The notes under the pieces are model-generated. The model saw nothing but the letters and a program-made list of their open reading frames with translations, searched no databases and had not been told where the DNA came from. DNA of 54,564 bases from the NCBI GenBank assembly GCA_038064595.1, contig JBBTSV010000002.1, positions 1 through 54,564 on the forward strand, read 5' to 3'. This stretch comes from Patescibacteria group bacterium. GTDB lineage: Bacteria > Patescibacteriota > Minisyncoccia > Phycocordibacterales > Phycocordibacteraceae. Each line of letters opens with the position of its first letter. The first letter of the stretch is position 1. The translations under genes were made by a program, and so were the position numbers. Positions 1 through 4,694 of this stretch are shown one piece after another.

Positions 1-52
1 ATCATTAATTCGGGTTTCGTGTAAAATGGGTTCTAGCGTGCTTTAATAGAGA

Positions 53-209
53 CTCCAGAATCAAAACAAGGTCAGATTCGCCGTCAGAAAATTTCGCGGC
101 GCGGAGCGCCGCGTAGGGGGGATGCGCATTTCCGCGCGCTTCGCGCGCGTGGAGGAGGTTCAGAAATACCAGATCCGAAAATTTTTGGAGGAAGGATTTT
201 TTGGAGGGG
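53..209. repeat. Left inverted repeat (IRL); reverse complement of 3285..3435
   Basis: By direct comparison, 53..155 is a perfect reverse complement of 3333..3435 (103 bp). Homology continues imperfectly, with a 6-nt indel, to 209 / 3285. Confidence 0.9.
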
Positions 210-304
210 AATGCGAATACAGAATACATCCGTAGTGTGCTTGCCCCTCCCACCCGTGCGCGCACCAGCCCCTTCGCTGGCGGGTCTGAAACCAGCGAAG
301 CTCC

Positions 305-1093
305 CTAAATGGAACTAGCGCTTGCCCATCTCGTCTCGAAATTAGCCGTTATCGTTTTTCTAATGTCTTTTCCGTAGCGATCTTGAACAACGACTATTAA
401 AGATTCTCTGTCACCAAGGTCTTTTATCCCATGTCCGACAATCAGAAATTGGTCCGTTGAGATGATGTACCGGTCGTGTAAGTCGTTGTGCGAAGTGACT
501 CGCATTTCAACTTTTTTGGAATGCTCTTTTTTAAAGTCAGTTAGGGCTCTGCTCAAGGTCGCCTGTTTCTCGCCCCCACCTACGCGAGCTGTCAAAAATC
601 GGATTTTCTTGTGGTGCTTCGCAAATGCCTCCAACACCTCTAGGGTTCTTAATCCATAGTAAGGGTCGCAAATTAACAGCTCTCCTTTAGGGAGTGTTCT
701 TATGAGCGACTCTAGCGTCCTTCGTGCGGTACGAGGTTTGTTGGGGTTCACATAAAGGACATTGAGTGGTTCGTCCTTCTTCAATCCCTTAAAATAAGCC
801 TCGCCTGGGCTACTGATTTTTAATCCGTTGCCGTTAGGACTTTTGATTATTTTTTTCCCAATAACCGGCGCAAACGCCTTCTGAAGGCGTTTTATGGTGA
901 TTGGTATGTCGAGAAACTCTTGCAAGATCGTTTGAATCTCCTCATAAGTTAAGTAGTCGACTCCGAACTCGTCCTTGCTCACGAACAAACACCACAGCCC
1001 CGCATCGAGAGATGCTTTGGTAAACCCGTAAACCGAAGGCAAGTCAGCCCTGCTCACTGCCGACATTCTCCATTTTTTCTTGTCTCCCTTCAT
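305..1093 (-). CDS. Hypothetical protein with an N-terminal winged-helix-like region and a C-terminal PLD-superfamily-like (MIT_C-type) domain
   Basis: 262-aa ORF with an ATG start. The C-terminal pattern LICDPYY...(about 75 aa)...LHDRYIISTD...GHGIKDLG resembles the DPY / HDR signature of the MIT_C PLD-like fold. It is the last gene of a tightly packed three-gene operon. Confidence 0.7.
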   Translation of the reverse strand: MKGDKKKWRMSAVSRADLPSVYGFTKASLDAGLWCLFVSKDEFGVDYLTYEEIQTILQEFLDIPITIKRLQKAFAPVIGKKIIKSPNGNGLKISSPGEAYFKGLKKDEPLNVLYVNPNKPRTARRTLESLIRTLPKGELLICDPYYGLRTLEVLEAFAKHHKKIRFLTARVGGGEKQATLSRALTDFKKEHSKKVEMRVTSHNDLHDRYIISTDQFLIVGHGIKDLGDRESLIVVVQDRYGKDIRKTITANFETRWASASSI

Positions 1094-1095
1094 GC

Positions 1096-1515
1096 TCAGT
1101 CAAATATGCTCATCCATCCTTGGCGCAAGTGATAGAAACCGTACTTTTTGGAATCTACCCAACCCTGAGTTACCGCCTCATTCGGGTACTTCCCGTTAAA
1201 GGTATATCCCAAAAGGTTCTTGGCTTTCATTTTGTTCCACTTGCTACTAATTACACCCACTTCAATATCGGAACCAGTTTTCCCTTTCGTCATGTGCGCG
1301 AGAAGGAGCGTGAATTTTTTCGGCCCGCTCAACCCTTTTGCATAGATTTTTATAAAGTTTTTCTCATTGAGTCCAAAATCTAGTTTAGTCGGTTGCGATG
1401 ATTTTGTGTCTGTCGTTTTCGCAACTGGCTTGTTTTTACCAGAATTGAACACCGCCCTTTCCAGACGTTCTAGCCGAGTAAGTATGGCCTTTGTAGTTTT
1501 TTCATTCATAAGCAT
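1096..1515 (-). CDS. Hypothetical protein, middle gene of the cassette
   Basis: 139-aa ORF. Its start abuts the stop of the upstream gene (1515/1516) and its stop lies 2 nt from the next start. It has an N-terminal coiled-coil-like LTRLERLERAV, a Lys/Thr-rich linker and a C-terminal globular part. No family was recognised. Confidence 0.6.
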   Translation of the reverse strand: MLMNEKTTKAILTRLERLERAVFNSGKNKPVAKTTDTKSSQPTKLDFGLNEKNFIKIYAKGLSGPKKFTLLLAHMTKGKTGSDIEVGVISSKWNKMKAKNLLGYTFNGKYPNEAVTQGWVDSKKYGFYHLRQGWMSIFD

Positions 1516-1890
1516 CTATTGAACGTAAAGCCAGCGCTTCTTATCTTTAATTCTTCGCAGGTGCCGCTTCCTGACAAGACGCAACGCAGTCGGAGACAAC
1601 GACGTGACGGGATAATGATAGCCCTGCTCGGCCAGGGCATTCTTTATTGCACTCAGCTCGCGCGGCTTCTTGAAGAATCCGCCGTCAATCAAGTCAGTAA
1701 CGAGGCTAATGGGAGTGGGACGCGCTTTATCAGACATCGCCTCCTTTCTCGAACTACGTCCATCCGTCTTAGTAGGAGCAGAACGTGATTTGCCGCCTTG
1801 TAGTTGTGAGACAAGATCGGCGACTTCCTTTGGCGTACCCTCCACGGTTATCTTTACGCCTTCTTTCGTTGTAATGTTAGCTTTTGCCAT
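1516..1890 (-). CDS. Hypothetical protein, first gene of the cassette, with a possible C-terminal winged-helix
   Basis: 124-aa ORF with an ATG start, transcribed divergently from the recombinase across a 57-bp spacer. It has a small N-terminal beta-rich segment, a basic disordered linker and a basic C-terminal tail (LRLVRKRHLRRIKDKKRW). Confidence 0.6.
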   Translation of the reverse strand: MAKANITTKEGVKITVEGTPKEVADLVSQLQGGKSRSAPTKTDGRSSRKEAMSDKARPTPISLVTDLIDGGFFKKPRELSAIKNALAEQGYHYPVTSLSPTALRLVRKRHLRRIKDKKRWLYVQ

Positions 1891-1947
1891 ATTCCATTAT
1901 TCAGATGTATGCTATCATAAGGGATAACTGAATACAAAGTCAAGCCT

Positions 1948-3495
1948 ATGCTCTACTTCCTTTACGCCCGCAAAAGCACCGATGTCGAGGATAAGCAGGT
2001 GCTGTCTATCGAAGCCCAGCTCGTCGAGCTCCGCGCGCTTGCTAAGCGCGAACAGCTCAACATCGTTGAGGTATTCGTGGAGAAGAAATCCGCAAAGATG
2101 CCGGGTCGCCCTATTTTCGGCGATATGATGGCGCGAATACAAAAGGGCGAAGCGCAGGGCATTATCTGTTGGAAGATTGACCGGCTCGCGCGTAATCCGG
2201 TAGACGGCGGGCAGATTCAGTGGCTCCTGCAACAGGGTGTGATTCGCCATATTCAGACGCACGACCGCTCGCACTTCCCAAACGACAATGTGCTGATGAT
2301 GTCGGTGGAGCTCGGTATGGCGAATGAGTACATCCGGCAATTGAGCGCGAATACTTCTCGCGGGCTCAGGCAGAAAGCGCGACAAGGTATCTATCCCGGC
2401 CTCGCGCCGTTCGGATATTTGAACGACCCGAGTACAAAGACTATCAAGACGCATCGTAAAAATGCGAAGTTAATCCGAGAAATTTTTGAACGGTATGCGA
2501 CCGGCAAGGATACTTTAGACATTCTCGCCACGATGCTTGAGAAGGCGGGCGTTCTGTCTAAAGGCAATCGTCGCATTCATATCTCGCAAATTTCGTTCTT
2601 TCTCCAAAATCCGTTCTACTACGGACACTTCCGCTACGCGGGCGAAGTGTACGAAGGCACGCACGAGCCGCTCGTTTCTAAAGAGCTTTTTGATAAGGCG
2701 AATGTCGTCCTGCATAGTCGCGGTCGTGTACCAGATATCAAGGATGATCCGAGCCCGTATTGTGGCCTGCTCCGCTGCTCCTGCGGTATGAGCATCACCG
2801 CCGAGAAGAAAGAGAAACACCAGAAGAACGGCAATATTCACCTCTATACCTACTACCGCTGTACGCGAAAATCTAAGGCGGTTAAATGCGTCGAAGCGCC
2901 GATACGAAGCGAATTGTTGGATTCTCAACTCTCGGCGCTTCTTGGTGAATACACGATGCCCGAGGAGTGGGTATCGCCGTTGTCTGCCCTTCTTGATACA
3001 GAAGCCGCCAACGCCTCTAAAACGGCAGCAGGTGCCGTTGCCGACCTGCGGGACAAGGTTACGGACATCTCGCGCACGCATGCTCGGCTAACCGACCTCT
3101 ATGTCGCCGAGGATTTGGAGCGCGAGGAGTACTTGTCCCGCCGCCGTTCGCTTATGAGCGAGCGCCGGACGATTGAGGAACAAATCGTCCGCCTTGAACG
3201 AACCCCTGCCGCGTGGGTTGAACCGGTCAGGAATTGGATAGAAGACGCTTCGCGTCTTGATGAAATCGCCCATTCTGAAAACTACCCCTCCAAAAAATCC
3301 TCCCTCCAAAAAATTTTCGGATTGAACCTCTCCCTCCACGCGCGCGAAGCGCGCGGAAATGCGCATCCCCCCTACGCGGCGCTCCGCGCCGCGAAATTTT
3401 CTGACGGCGAATCTGACCTTGTTTTGATTCTGGAGCCGAGAGTCGGGATTGAACCGACGACCTGCGCCTTACCATGGCGCTGCTCTACCAACTGA
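1948..3495 (+). CDS. Large serine recombinase
   Basis: The N-terminal resolvase catalytic motif is YARKSTDVEDKQVLSIEAQ. A recombinase domain follows, then a Cys-rich zinc-ribbon (CGLLRCSCG...YYRCTRK...KC) and a coiled-coil tail. The ORF has no stop until 3495, so it runs through IRR and antisense into tRNA-Thr. The true C-terminus is uncertain. Confidence 0.9.
   Translation: MLYFLYARKSTDVEDKQVLSIEAQLVELRALAKREQLNIVEVFVEKKSAKMPGRPIFGDMMARIQKGEAQGIICWKIDRLARNPVDGGQIQWLLQQGVIRHIQTHDRSHFPNDNVLMMSVELGMANEYIRQLSANTSRGLRQKARQGIYPGLAPFGYLNDPSTKTIKTHRKNAKLIREIFERYATGKDTLDILATMLEKAGVLSKGNRRIHISQISFFLQNPFYYGHFRYAGEVYEGTHEPLVSKELFDKANVVLHSRGRVPDIKDDPSPYCGLLRCSCGMSITAEKKEKHQKNGNIHLYTYYRCTRKSKAVKCVEAPIRSELLDSQLSALLGEYTMPEEWVSPLSALLDTEAANASKTAAGAVADLRDKVTDISRTHARLTDLYVAEDLEREEYLSRRRSLMSERRTIEEQIVRLERTPAAWVEPVRNWIEDASRLDEIAHSENYPSKKSSLQKIFGLNLSLHAREARGNAHPPYAALRAAKFSDGESDLVLILEPRVGIEPTTCALPWRCSTN
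3285..3435. repeat. Right inverted repeat (IRR); reverse complement of 53..209
   Basis: Same comparison as for IRL. It lies inside the 3' end of the recombinase ORF and ends 5 nt inside tRNA-Thr. Confidence 0.9.
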
Positions 3496-3506
3496 GCTAT
3501 CTCGGC
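3431..3506 (-). tRNA. tRNA-Thr (anticodon GGT), CCA encoded
   Basis: Manual cloverleaf: GCCGAGA/TCTCGGC acceptor, GCTC/GAGC D stem, GCGCC-ATGGTAA-GGCGC anticodon arm, GTCGG-TTCAATC-CCGAC T arm, discriminator T, then CCA. Confidence 0.9.
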
Positions 3507-3940: not shown

Positions 3941-3947
3941 TGCTTTG

Positions 3948-4022
3948 CGCGGTCGATGGGATTTGAACCCACGATCTCGTCCGTGACAGGGACGCGCTTT
4001 GAACCAACTAAGCTACGACCGC
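3948..4022 (-). tRNA. tRNA-Asp (anticodon GTC)
   Basis: Manual cloverleaf: GCGGTCG/CGACCGC acceptor, GCTT/AAGC D stem, CGTCC-CTGTCAC-GGACG anticodon arm, GTGGG-TTCAAAT-CCCAT T arm, discriminator G. CCA is not encoded. Confidence 0.9.
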
Positions 4023-4694
4023 ATTCTTCTTCGTGGCTAAAAATCGCTCAAAGACGACTTTCTTCCTTACCAGCAGTAATTCCGAAGAATCCTCCCGATT
4101 ATACATCAATTTATATAATTTCAAAGAATCTCGCGTCCCGAGCTGCAACCGAGAATAGTTATTTTTTGAGTCATAAATTGATCCTCCGTCGATACCCTGC
4201 TGTCGCAGTTTCTTCAGAAGAAGAACGAGAAAACGCCTCGAACAAGAGGTGAACGCCGTCAAGAGCGTCAAGCTGGGACTTTTCCTCTCCTTTTTCGTAA
4301 GGCCGAACCACACATTCCCATCTCCATCGAAATACCCTCGAACAAAGTGTGAGAAATACTTTTGGGGAACATGTGGTACCGCCAGACTTTTTGTTTTATT
4401 TGGCATGAATCCCAATTTCTCCAAATCCGTACACATCTCTTTATTTCCTATTTGAAGACGGTAGATAATCTTTTCATTTCCCTTCCTCGATCGAACACTT
4501 ATTTTATGCTCAGACCGTATCGCTTTTTTAATCTCGATAAGAATATGTTCATCAGTAATTTGAATATTCCAAAAATGAGCACCCCTCTTATTAAGAGTTA
4601 GATATCCGTCTGCGGCGAAAAATCCAAGAATGTAGGCCATTTCGGGCGACCATGTTTTAAAGAAATCTGCGTTCACCGCGCGATGCATCGGCAT
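4008..4694 (-). CDS. LAGLIDADG-family homing endonuclease, double-motif and free-standing
   Basis: Two LAGLIDADG-type motifs are present: YILGFFAADGY and FVRGYFDGDGNV. The gene is markedly A+T-rich relative to its neighbours. Its last 15 nt, including the stop, overlap the 5' end of tRNA-Asp. Confidence 0.85.
   Translation of the reverse strand: MPMHRAVNADFFKTWSPEMAYILGFFAADGYLTLNKRGAHFWNIQITDEHILIEIKKAIRSEHKISVRSRKGNEKIIYRLQIGNKEMCTDLEKLGFMPNKTKSLAVPHVPQKYFSHFVRGYFDGDGNVWFGLTKKERKSPSLTLLTAFTSCSRRFLVLLLKKLRQQGIDGGSIYDSKNNYSRLQLGTRDSLKLYKLMYNREDSSELLLVRKKVVFERFLATKKNAVVA

Follow-up and report, generated by a model that had tools for sequence, protein, structure and literature searches.

A patescibacterial tRNA-Thr island with a large serine recombinase, a tRNA-encoded C-terminus and a probable second, inverted attachment site

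Large serine recombinases (LSRs) include the integrases of phiC31, Bxb1, A118/LI and SPbeta (SprA), the Ccr enzymes of SCCmec and TnpX of Tn4451. For canonical LSRs, an attachment site (attP) of about 50 bp suffices, with half-sites of about 25 nt each. The subject of the current work is an LSR gene of Patescibacteria (candidate phyla radiation), a group with very small genomes whose mobile elements are little known. The gene lies between long inverted repeats at the beginning of contig JBBTSV010000002.1 (assembly GCA_038064595.1), of which positions 1 to 54,564 were analyzed (hereafter the window). Window 1-3506 is probably the recombinase end of an island that was integrated by its LSR at the 3' end of tRNA-Thr(GGT), and the left repeat arm is probably a spare, inverted attP; the probability of this reading is put at about 0.65. 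The element is apparently one of the common island types of Patescibacteria.

The locus resembles the described LSR integrases in enzyme family and domain order. Simple sites, a matching 2-nt core, an imperfectly symmetric attP, and a motif that is nearer to the core in the target site (attB) than in attP are also shared. In the present element, however, the attP core is located inside the recombinase open reading frame (ORF), and integration appears to rewrite the C-terminus of the enzyme. The arm is 103-150 nt long and contains covarying palindromes, in contrast to the ~25 nt per half-site of the known integrases. Moreover, a second, inverted attP is constantly present, and the targets are the extreme 3' ends of several tRNA genes.

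The invertases Hin, Gin, Cin and Pin also combine a serine recombinase with a segment that is bracketed by inverted repeats and occurs in both orientations. These enzymes are small (~190 aa), act on 26-bp sites with a Fis-bound enhancer, are encoded outside of the segment and do not integrate. Here, an LSR of ~500 aa is encoded inside the segment, the arms have 103-150 nt and one of the repeats is an integration junction at a tRNA, so that the locus falls outside the group of Hin and Gin. In the mycobacteriophages BPs and Brujita, which have tyrosine integrases, the attP core is reportedly located inside the repressor gene, and the integrated and free forms are said to encode different C-termini. 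The location of attP in coding sequence is common to both cases, whereas here the enzyme is a serine recombinase, the recombinase gene itself is altered and there is a spare inverted attP.

A long pair of inverted repeats that holds the target of a recombinase is also found in the yeast 2-micron plasmid (599 bp, FLP/FRT), which has two unique segments, one of them encoding the recombinase, and exists as both isomers. FLP, however, is a tyrosine recombinase and serves the copy-number amplification of a free plasmid, whereas the present element is chromosomal, at a tRNA gene, with no replication genes seen. Islands at tRNA genes (Islander-type islands and tycheposons) are similar in that they carry cargo at these genes, which in the present case is largely defense. 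A few tycheposons use LSRs, and the tycheposon preprint touches on LSRs only in passing. Classical tRNA islands contain a tyrosine integrase and a direct repeat of the 3' part of the tRNA; here, the overlap with the tRNA is a few bases only, and the inverted repeats are made up of recombinase coding sequence, which sets the locus apart from that class. Literature searches gave no description of this recombinase family or of the twin-arm layout, and the layout of twin inverted attP sites is apparently not yet described.

The recombinase and its junction with tRNA-Thr

The recombinase ORF (window 1948..3495, plus strand) encodes 515 aa. A Resolvase domain (PF00239, 3e-22, residues 4-147) and a Recombinase domain (PF07508, 6e-15) were matched by Pfam, and a zinc ribbon (PF13408) reached 24.6 bits, slightly below the cut-off of 25.3. 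The Y-A-R-K-S10-T motif, which contains the nucleophilic serine, is invariant over 66 homologues. The closest solved relatives by sequence are the SPbeta and A118 integrases (PDB). The AlphaFold2 model, with long paired helices at residues 340-436, matches the full-length structures of the SPbeta, Bxb1 and phiC31 integrases with E values of 1e-19 to 1e-12 (Foldseek), and the A118 integrase is also among the fold matches. By sequence and predicted fold, the enzyme is a genuine and otherwise ordinary LSR, in agreement with a preliminary description of this DNA, which had placed an LSR between the repeats.

The family is large. A protein search gave 4,887 proteins at E <=1e-10 among 8,000 candidates scored, mostly of ~516 aa and aligned over 100% of the query, and relatives are found by the thousand in Patescibacteria assemblies. 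At least 558 relatives were detected in a scan of metagenomes. The scan of viral contigs gave no relative of the family, and a phage origin is thus unsupported. An exact-sequence look-up gave no match for the 515-aa recombinase of the window or for its cupin neighbor.

Positions 53-155 and 3333-3435 of the window are inverted arms of 103 nt that are 100% complementary (repeat finder). A second inverted block (178-209 and 3285-3316) is 94% complementary, with an indel between this block and the 103-nt core. Each half of the core is present exactly twice in the window, with 0 copies expected by chance from shuffles, and a protein-level search of the whole window gave no third copy of the arm. 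The right arm overlaps the final 5 nt (C72-U73-CCA) of an intact tRNA-Thr(GGT) at 3431-3506 on the minus strand (ARAGORN, Rfam). The perfect repeat, its weaker extension to 209 and 3285, the recombinase and three ORFs between the arms (ORF calls, Pfam) and the end of the right repeat inside tRNA-Thr had all been described earlier from the letters of the DNA, and were reproduced here by these tools. The Rfam scan of the window gave two tRNAs only; the arms are thus not a known RNA.

The preliminary description had missed that the right arm is read through by the recombinase ORF, that a partial copy of the 3' end of this ORF makes up the left arm, and that positions 52..5 (minus strand) encode a conserved alternative tail. 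On the minus strand, the left arm is a copy of recombinase codons ~446-496, reading FPSKKSFLQKFSDLVFLNLLHAREARG...DLVLILE where the recombinase gene reads YPSKKSSLQKIFGLNLSLHAREARG...DLVLILE. Past LILE, the left copy runs into window 52..5 as SLLKHARTHFTRNPN and a stop codon. In the following, X denotes the shared coding stretch (X' its left copy), Y the alternative tail and the sequence onward, T the tRNA side and o the junction; Z is used for sequence unrelated to X that is joined to a distal Y arm at o.

On the right side, X consists of an inner arm (3285..3332, plus strand; codons YPSKKSSLQKIFGLNLS) and an outer arm (3333..3435, plus strand), which is coding and appears to be the P-type half of attR, the junction with the tRNA. 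On the left side, the outer arm of X' (53..155, minus strand) is the perfect inverted copy of the last coding stretch of the recombinase and a putative P-type half-site. The inner arm of X' (156..211, minus strand) copies codons ~446-462 (FPSKKSFLQKFSDLVFLNL) in diverged form, carries an indel and is in frame with no gene start; its variant 'F.FLNL' is also typical of left arms at other loci. The Y' arm (1..52, minus strand), a putative P'-type half-site, is cut by the window edge and holds the native alternative tail SLLKHARTHFTRNPN* in codons 52..5, within an ORF at 5..265 on the minus strand. In the recombinase ORF itself, residues 1-496 are the real protein, and residues 497-515 (PRVGIEPTTCALPWRCSTN) are antisense tRNA with the stop codon in the D-loop.

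Half-sites were oriented outward from o and a consensus was taken, which is CTCCAgAATCAAAC... for X, TCCCTATTAAAC..GCTAGAACC for Y and CCG..ggccGGAATCGAACC for T. AATCAAAC and TATTAAAC are each located 4 nt from the AG of GG[AG], on opposite sides; X|Y is thus an imperfect palindrome around a 2-nt core, as in known LSR attP sites. The core is AG, TG or CT, depending on the subfamily, and is identical at all sites of one locus. The AG of GG[AG] is the probable crossover dinucleotide. In attR, the putative dinucleotide is the AG at 3434..3435 (plus strand), equal to tRNA positions 72-73, and in the spare attP it would be at 53..54 (CT on the plus strand, AG on the recombinase-sense strand) by symmetry. 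With the core at 3434-3435, the CCA end of the tRNA (3431-3433) is supplied by the island, and since X and X' are identical in the CCA region, either arm would leave the tRNA intact. The crossover point is inside the recombinase ORF, 16 codons short of the native stop. The flanks AGAGA|CTCCAG... and ...CTGGAG|CCGAG show no target-site duplication, and only CTCCA is shared with the tRNA, in inverted orientation, with no direct repeat as in tyrosine-integrase islands.

In solved LSR complexes, the motif of the zinc domain is ~5 bases further out in attP than in attB half-sites, as reported from work on the LI integrase. In the present family, the Y motif TAGAACC is 4 nt further from the core than the T-arm sequence TCGAACC in T (TTGAACC in the tRNA-Thr of the window, a putative B'-type half-site), an offset which resembles the known spacing of attP and attB. 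If the zinc domain reads this near-universal T-arm sequence, the targeting of many tRNAs by one family would be explained. The family would also be a source of tRNA-targeting integrases that recognize the conserved T-arm.

Alternative C-termini, the spare site and its use

Nearly all homologues of ~516 aa end in ...LILEP..GIEP.T..LP..CSTN, which is the antisense of the T-arm, anticodon arm and D-loop of a tRNA. These endings differ in detail, and different tRNAs are involved. A minority of homologues end in ...LILE-SLLxxARTYFxxN, the tail encoded beside the left arm of the window, where it begins SLLKHARTHF.... Full-length recombinases with this left-flank (Y) tail are P0005, P0054, P0063, P0074, P0084 and P0095, and a wider sample of full-length proteins contained 131 tRNA-tailed and 13 Y-tailed members. 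Three pairs of Y-tailed and tRNA-tailed proteins (P0054/P0136, P0074/P0135 and P0084/P0141) are 100% identical up to LILE, and five further pairs are at least 98% identical. Thus, the same genes exist in two states that differ in the tail, with the exchange at one fixed point.

The Y tail was found next to the inverted arm in ~45 loci. In the coding frame its pN/pS is 0.39, and the two other frames give 0.69 and 1.75, in a set that was collected by peptide motif and hence carries some ascertainment bias. Variation in the tail is codon-like, with AGA/CGA at arginine and third-position changes at Leu, Thr, Tyr and Phe. The possibility that the left flank Y is host DNA downstream of a tRNA was considered and rejected, because Y is conserved beside different tRNAs, varies like codons and ends full-length recombinases.

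In the AlphaFold2 prediction of a Y-tailed relative, the C-terminus forms a mini-domain of a helix (447-458), a beta-hairpin (463-470) and two further helices (475-486 and 492-509) with pLDDT of ~85-90. The last of these helices (pLDDT ~85-88) spans the crossover point. In the prediction for the window protein, residues 485-515 are coil with pLDDT of 34-46 and the tail is disordered. Integration thus swaps a predicted helix for a disordered, tRNA-encoded tail, and the swap may have a regulatory consequence for activity, stability or direction. If the tail swap or the twin sites set direction or orientation without a separate factor, this would be a new control principle.

A total of 79 loci from species-representative genomes and 80 from metagenomes were mapped, and every X copy, Y motif and tRNA was placed. 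The layout of the window, an inverted X'|Y located 0.3-9 kb upstream of a recombinase whose X joins a tRNA, was present in 63 non-redundant loci with recombinases 50-93% identical to that of the window. In the smallest versions, only ~300 nt separate X' from the start of the recombinase, and in others the cargo reaches 9 kb. Where X' was not detected, the locus mostly offered too little upstream sequence or belonged to a distant relative (42-53% identity). The target tRNA is mostly one of three Thr isoacceptors; Arg, Gly, Phe, Val and Gln tRNAs are also used. In one Paceibacterota genome (JBAZVG010000001.1), three copies of the element are found at tRNA-Thr(TGT), tRNA-Thr(GGT) and tRNA-Phe(GAA) (L036, L042 and L051), the Y arms of which lose their likeness ~190 nt from the junction.

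On the Y side, ~170-260 nt past o are conserved (tail, stop codon and GC-rich hairpins), after which the relatives diverge. In 12 loci with long left flanks, a further Y arm of opposite orientation was found 1.8-9.4 kb out, joined at o to Z, which is unrelated to X and yet ends in the same core bases. If attP is X|Y and attB is Z|T, this distal junction of host and Y would be attL. The complete island of these loci reads Z|Y, segment 1, inverted (X'|Y'), segment 2 (cargo and recombinase) and X|T. Given the host|Y junction beyond the left arm in relatives, the window starts inside a larger island, and the 3.4-kb segment is not autonomous. The island of the window itself probably extends to such a junction beyond the left edge. 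Contigs of unrelated assemblies (the window, L006, L033, L035, L070, L101 and L166) stop 51-53 nt past o. Such ends would be expected from de Bruijn assembly with k=55 in a genome that holds further copies of the Y arm, and the contig end near o may be a hint of a second Y arm in the genome of the window.

The two arms of a locus evolve together. Over the outer 103 nt, X and X' of the same locus have a median identity of 97%, with 10 of 39 pairs perfect, compared with ~60% between loci. The identity regularly stops at the same inner boundary, where X' has an indel. L094, an independent assembly 99.98% identical to the window, starts at window 227, just inside the left arm. Three single-nucleotide polymorphisms (SNPs) in 13,260 nt separate it from the window; two are located in the X arm (3367 and 3375), and both are mirrored in X' of the window (121 and 113). 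The mirrored SNPs suggest a recent gene-conversion tract, which would account for the perfect arms of the window.

Each outer arm contains two conserved palindromes with 7-8-bp stems, ~36 nt apart, located at 3339-3355 and 3375-3393 in X and at 133-149 and 95-113 in X'. Over 49 loci, palindrome 2 (3375-3393; 95-113) is paired in 90.8% of cells, with compensatory changes in all eight pairs (for example, in the protein, AALRAA versus AELRSA), and palindrome 1 in 81%; shifted controls gave 22-50%. A middle palindrome, ATGCGCAT, is not conserved (45% paired). As the palindromes are inside coding sequence, selection has maintained their symmetry in addition to the protein sequence. Possible roles are those of accessory sites for protein binding, of hairpins at the 3' end of the recombinase mRNA or of tRNA trailer structures. 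In the recombinase sense, palindrome 2 together with AAATTTTCTG has a terminator-like score; its location is within the ORF, 42 nt before the junction. An active terminator at this place would give non-stop transcripts; the T-run, however, is not conserved family-wide, and the location upstream of the stop codon also weakens the case for an intrinsic terminator.

Use of both sites is seen in a module (X'...X) with a UvrD-like helicase and the recombinase, which is at least 99.8% identical across contigs of different metagenomes and is found with three partner sets. In L083, L085 and L086 the order is Y1|X' ... X|Y2. In L175 it is Y1|X' ... X|tRNA-Thr(CGT), followed by five host genes, and in L084 the same five host genes and tRNA-Thr(CGT) are joined to X', with X|Y2 at the other end. 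The module is thus present in both orientations relative to one tRNA-Thr(CGT) and its host flank, with the switch at the same base. L084 is not the plain inverse of L175, since inversion would give X|Y1. A single attP x attB reaction would suffice to turn the L083 form into either arrangement; it would use the attP of the recombinase gene for L175 and the spare attP for L084.

The X'|tRNA junction of L084 also occurs in L030, L053, L057, L126 and L134, and the left arm is thus used. Both ends of the module adjoin tRNA-like sequence in L100 and L013. L080 equals L025 at 100% over 1,856 nt and then continues as X|Y into the left flank of L025; the arms of L025 are perfectly identical over 103 nt, so that a path switch of the assembler is possible in principle. 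Read from these junctions, both attP copies are in use, and the partner exchanges are presumably catalyzed by the window-family recombinase itself.

These results can be combined in one model. The attP (X|Y) would be located inside the recombinase gene, X being the last ~150 coding nt up to ...LILE and Y the final 15-16 codons (SLLxxARTYF...), the stop codon and a hairpin-rich 3' region. Integration would join X to the tRNA and form attR at 3285-3435|3436. Once X is joined to the tRNA, the recombinase ORF runs into the antisense tRNA, and the CCA end supplied by the island keeps the tRNA intact. A second complete, inverted attP (X'|Y', window 211..1) would be left intact after integration, and for this reason recombinase and cargo would appear bracketed by long inverted repeats. 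The spare attP could react with another tRNA attB, or could serve as the first integration site and place the module the other way round. With either attP able to react with a tRNA attB, the module would come to lie in both orientations and with swapped partners, and gene conversion would keep the two X arms nearly identical.

This twin-attP model explains the length and orientation of the repeats, the overlap with the tRNA, the two classes of tails, the swapping of partners and the joint evolution of the arms, and it keeps the LSR rule of attP x attB recombination. The earlier view that the repeats are not a plain attL/attR pair was well founded: the right arm would be attR and the left arm an internal inverted copy of attP. 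Three testable oddities would be added to an enzyme class that is widely used in genome engineering, namely an attP core in the integrase ORF that replaces a predicted terminal helix, long arms with covarying palindromes, and a constant second inverted attP that is used.

Several observations weigh against this model. The window ends 52 nt past the left arm, and the predicted distal host|Y junction is out of view. No empty attB was recovered for any locus, no free circular form was found, and the viral contigs gave no family match. The typing of half-sites as P or B and the placement of the crossover dinucleotide follow from sequence symmetry only. Arm identity over 103-150 nt and covarying palindromes are not explained by twin attP sites beyond gene conversion, nor are the consistent upkeep of the spare site and the role of the palindromes. 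The longer alternating chains of sites in L083 and L099, and the chains in L100 and L013, go beyond the product of one integration event. Finally, the relative P0037 occurs on 11 contigs from several samples, and the six places shown all have the same arrangement; switching is thus not frequent everywhere.

Competing explanations of the inverted arms

The elements could also reflect a distinct mode of LSR action. In this mode, a complex site of ~150 bp with accessory palindromes, located in the coding sequence of the enzyme and always present in two inverted copies, would need no separate directionality factor and would allow integration in either orientation, flipping or exchange of cargo cassettes between tRNA docks, and, along with these, a switching of the C-terminal helix of the enzyme between presence and absence. 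If true, integration would be self-limiting. We regard this stronger proposal as tentative and rather doubtful. No candidate for a directionality factor turned up, the two small cargo ORFs having no family match, and no dedicated test for such a factor was made.

A self-inverting switch is less probable again. Here, the LSR would recombine attR with the internal attP, flip the 3.3-kb segment and toggle its own C-terminus, as a form of phase variation or self-regulation. Such a switch would suit the identical modules in both orientations, the long, inverted and homogenized arms, the different predicted structures of the two tails, and the Y' tail, which stands beside a non-coding fragment and nevertheless varies like coding sequence, as if it were periodically re-joined to the gene. 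An actual inversion is seen between L083:3523-6096 and L085:3497-6070, from two JGI metagenomes, in which a 2,574-nt segment with a 665-aa gene between inverted Y arms is inverted at 100% identity.

This inversion was considered as proof of a site-specific crossover and failed as such, because the Y arms at its ends are identical over their first 115 nt, so that RecA-type recombination could also have produced it. The set of L083, L175 and L084 is likewise no simple flip; X|Y2 in L084 fits two separate attP x attB reactions. The states are also very unequal, with 63 loci arranged as in the window and only a handful otherwise, and no single sample contained both orientations. Characterized LSRs are not known to recombine attR with attP unless a directionality factor is present. 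The preliminary description had proposed, as the first of three readings, an invertible segment that carries its own invertase; this reading came closest, in that modules at least 99.8% identical occur in both orientations, whereas Hin-like inversion between the repeats gave way to attP x attB reactions in the best-documented cases. A flip in place between the arms is possible, and would be the more remarkable of the two readings.

In a third explanation, X'...X would be a cassette or transposon-like unit with terminal inverted repeats (TIRs) of ~150 bp, which moves by double recombination into docks of inward-facing half-sites, such as Y arms or convergent tRNA 3' ends. The same module does occur in the docks Y1/Y2, Y1/tRNA and tRNA/Y2, and the modules of L100 and L013 have tRNA-like sequence on both sides. 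The minimal versions, in which ~300 nt lie between the arm and the gene start, hold the recombinase only, and the cargo between X' and recombinase is highly variable, as expected of a cassette. Y arms, however, move and evolve together with the element (at most loci, Y and Y' are alike), the recombinase ORF is completed by Y, the host|Y junctions form a more distal boundary, and single attP x attB events suffice for each step. Of the transposon with unusually long TIRs that had been suggested earlier for this DNA, the discrete cassette holds, and the rest is contradicted by the absence of a target duplication and by the conserved Y arm (~170-260 nt) that continues past the left repeat. We therefore consider a transposon-like unit improbable.

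The chance is very small that the left arm is a functionless relic, left by the decay of another recombinase gene or element in head-to-head orientation, of which the 3' end survives and is kept similar by gene conversion only. The arm is indeed a gene fragment with an indel, its inner part has stop codons in many loci, and the evidence for gene conversion applies here as well. The same fragment with the same boundaries, however, is present at 63 loci whose recombinases are only 50-93% identical to that of the window, its Y' tail is conserved, and the arm is joined to tRNA in L030, L053, L057, L084, L126 and L134. The earlier suggestion of two head-to-head ends with the left partner lost was thus correct as to the origin of the arm from a recombinase gene, and not as to its loss of role, since the fragment is conserved, co-evolving and used in relatives.

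An assembly artefact, that is, a fold-back or chimeric contig end that created the left copy, can be dismissed. In its favor, only 52 nt lie between the window start and the left arm, breaks of contigs at these arms or close to them are frequent, and one contig (L110) has perfect inverted ends of 1,040 nt. However, mismatches and an indel distinguish the inner part of the left arm from that of the right, which makes it a separate locus, three independent contigs of the same population (L081, L082 and L094) agree with the window up to or into the arm, the same layout occurs at 63 other loci, the flank 1-52 is the family-conserved Y tail and not tRNA, and ends 51-53 nt past the junction would be expected from k=55 assembly with a repeated Y arm. 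L081 originates from the Hainich H41 metagenomes.

Cargo and further observations

The three cargo genes of the window are on the minus strand. The first (305..1093) encodes a 262-aa protein with a PLD-like fold, a candidate defense protein by its match to PADLOC PDC-S05 (5e-9) and a weak Pfam match to MIT_C/PLD-like domains. The other two, at 1096..1515 (139 aa) and 1516..1890 (124 aa), have no family match. The divergent intergenic region between this operon and the recombinase (1891..1947, 57 nt) contains promoter-like hexamers on both strands, which are consensus matches only.

Among the related loci, the cargo is mostly defense and includes OLD/AbiEii-type ATPases, type I, II and III restriction-modification systems, DUF4411/M78 pairs, a KAP NTPase and a deaminase. 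These islands at tRNA genes thus carry restriction, abortive-infection and other defense genes, and in one case metal resistance. Upstream of the recombinase of L088 (1-9983), and also in L089-L092, a multicopper oxidase, a P-type ATPase, a CsoR-like repressor and DsbA are encoded. The copper/heavy-metal resistance set of L088 is adaptive cargo beyond defense. The arrangement of L088-L092 is the same in all six places shown.

Contig L110 (1-3793, whole contig) consists of a 1,713-nt unique core with the recombinase between the two copies of a 1,040-nt perfect inverted duplication, which covers X, Y and 690 nt more. Either the inverted repeat is much longer in that genome, or the assembly path folded back on itself. 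Many target tRNA-Thr genes contain an insertion of ~280 nt in the region of the anticodon loop (L084:3843-4195 and L013:9500-9695; also the tails of P0014, P0023, P0085 and others), and these tRNAs are therefore missed by ARAGORN. In L084, 278 nt separate the halves of tRNA-Thr(GGT), and recombinase tails such as ...GIEP.TSSFAYTS... run into insertions of this kind. Part of the insertion of L084 is 79-83% similar to the distal part of a Y arm (L083:6-71 and L175:458-548).

Outside of the segment, a free-standing ORF similar to LAGLIDADG homing endonucleases (228 aa, window 4008-4694, minus strand) is located directly upstream of tRNA-Asp (3947-4022). A similar gene is present in the same neighborhood in L088 and L094.

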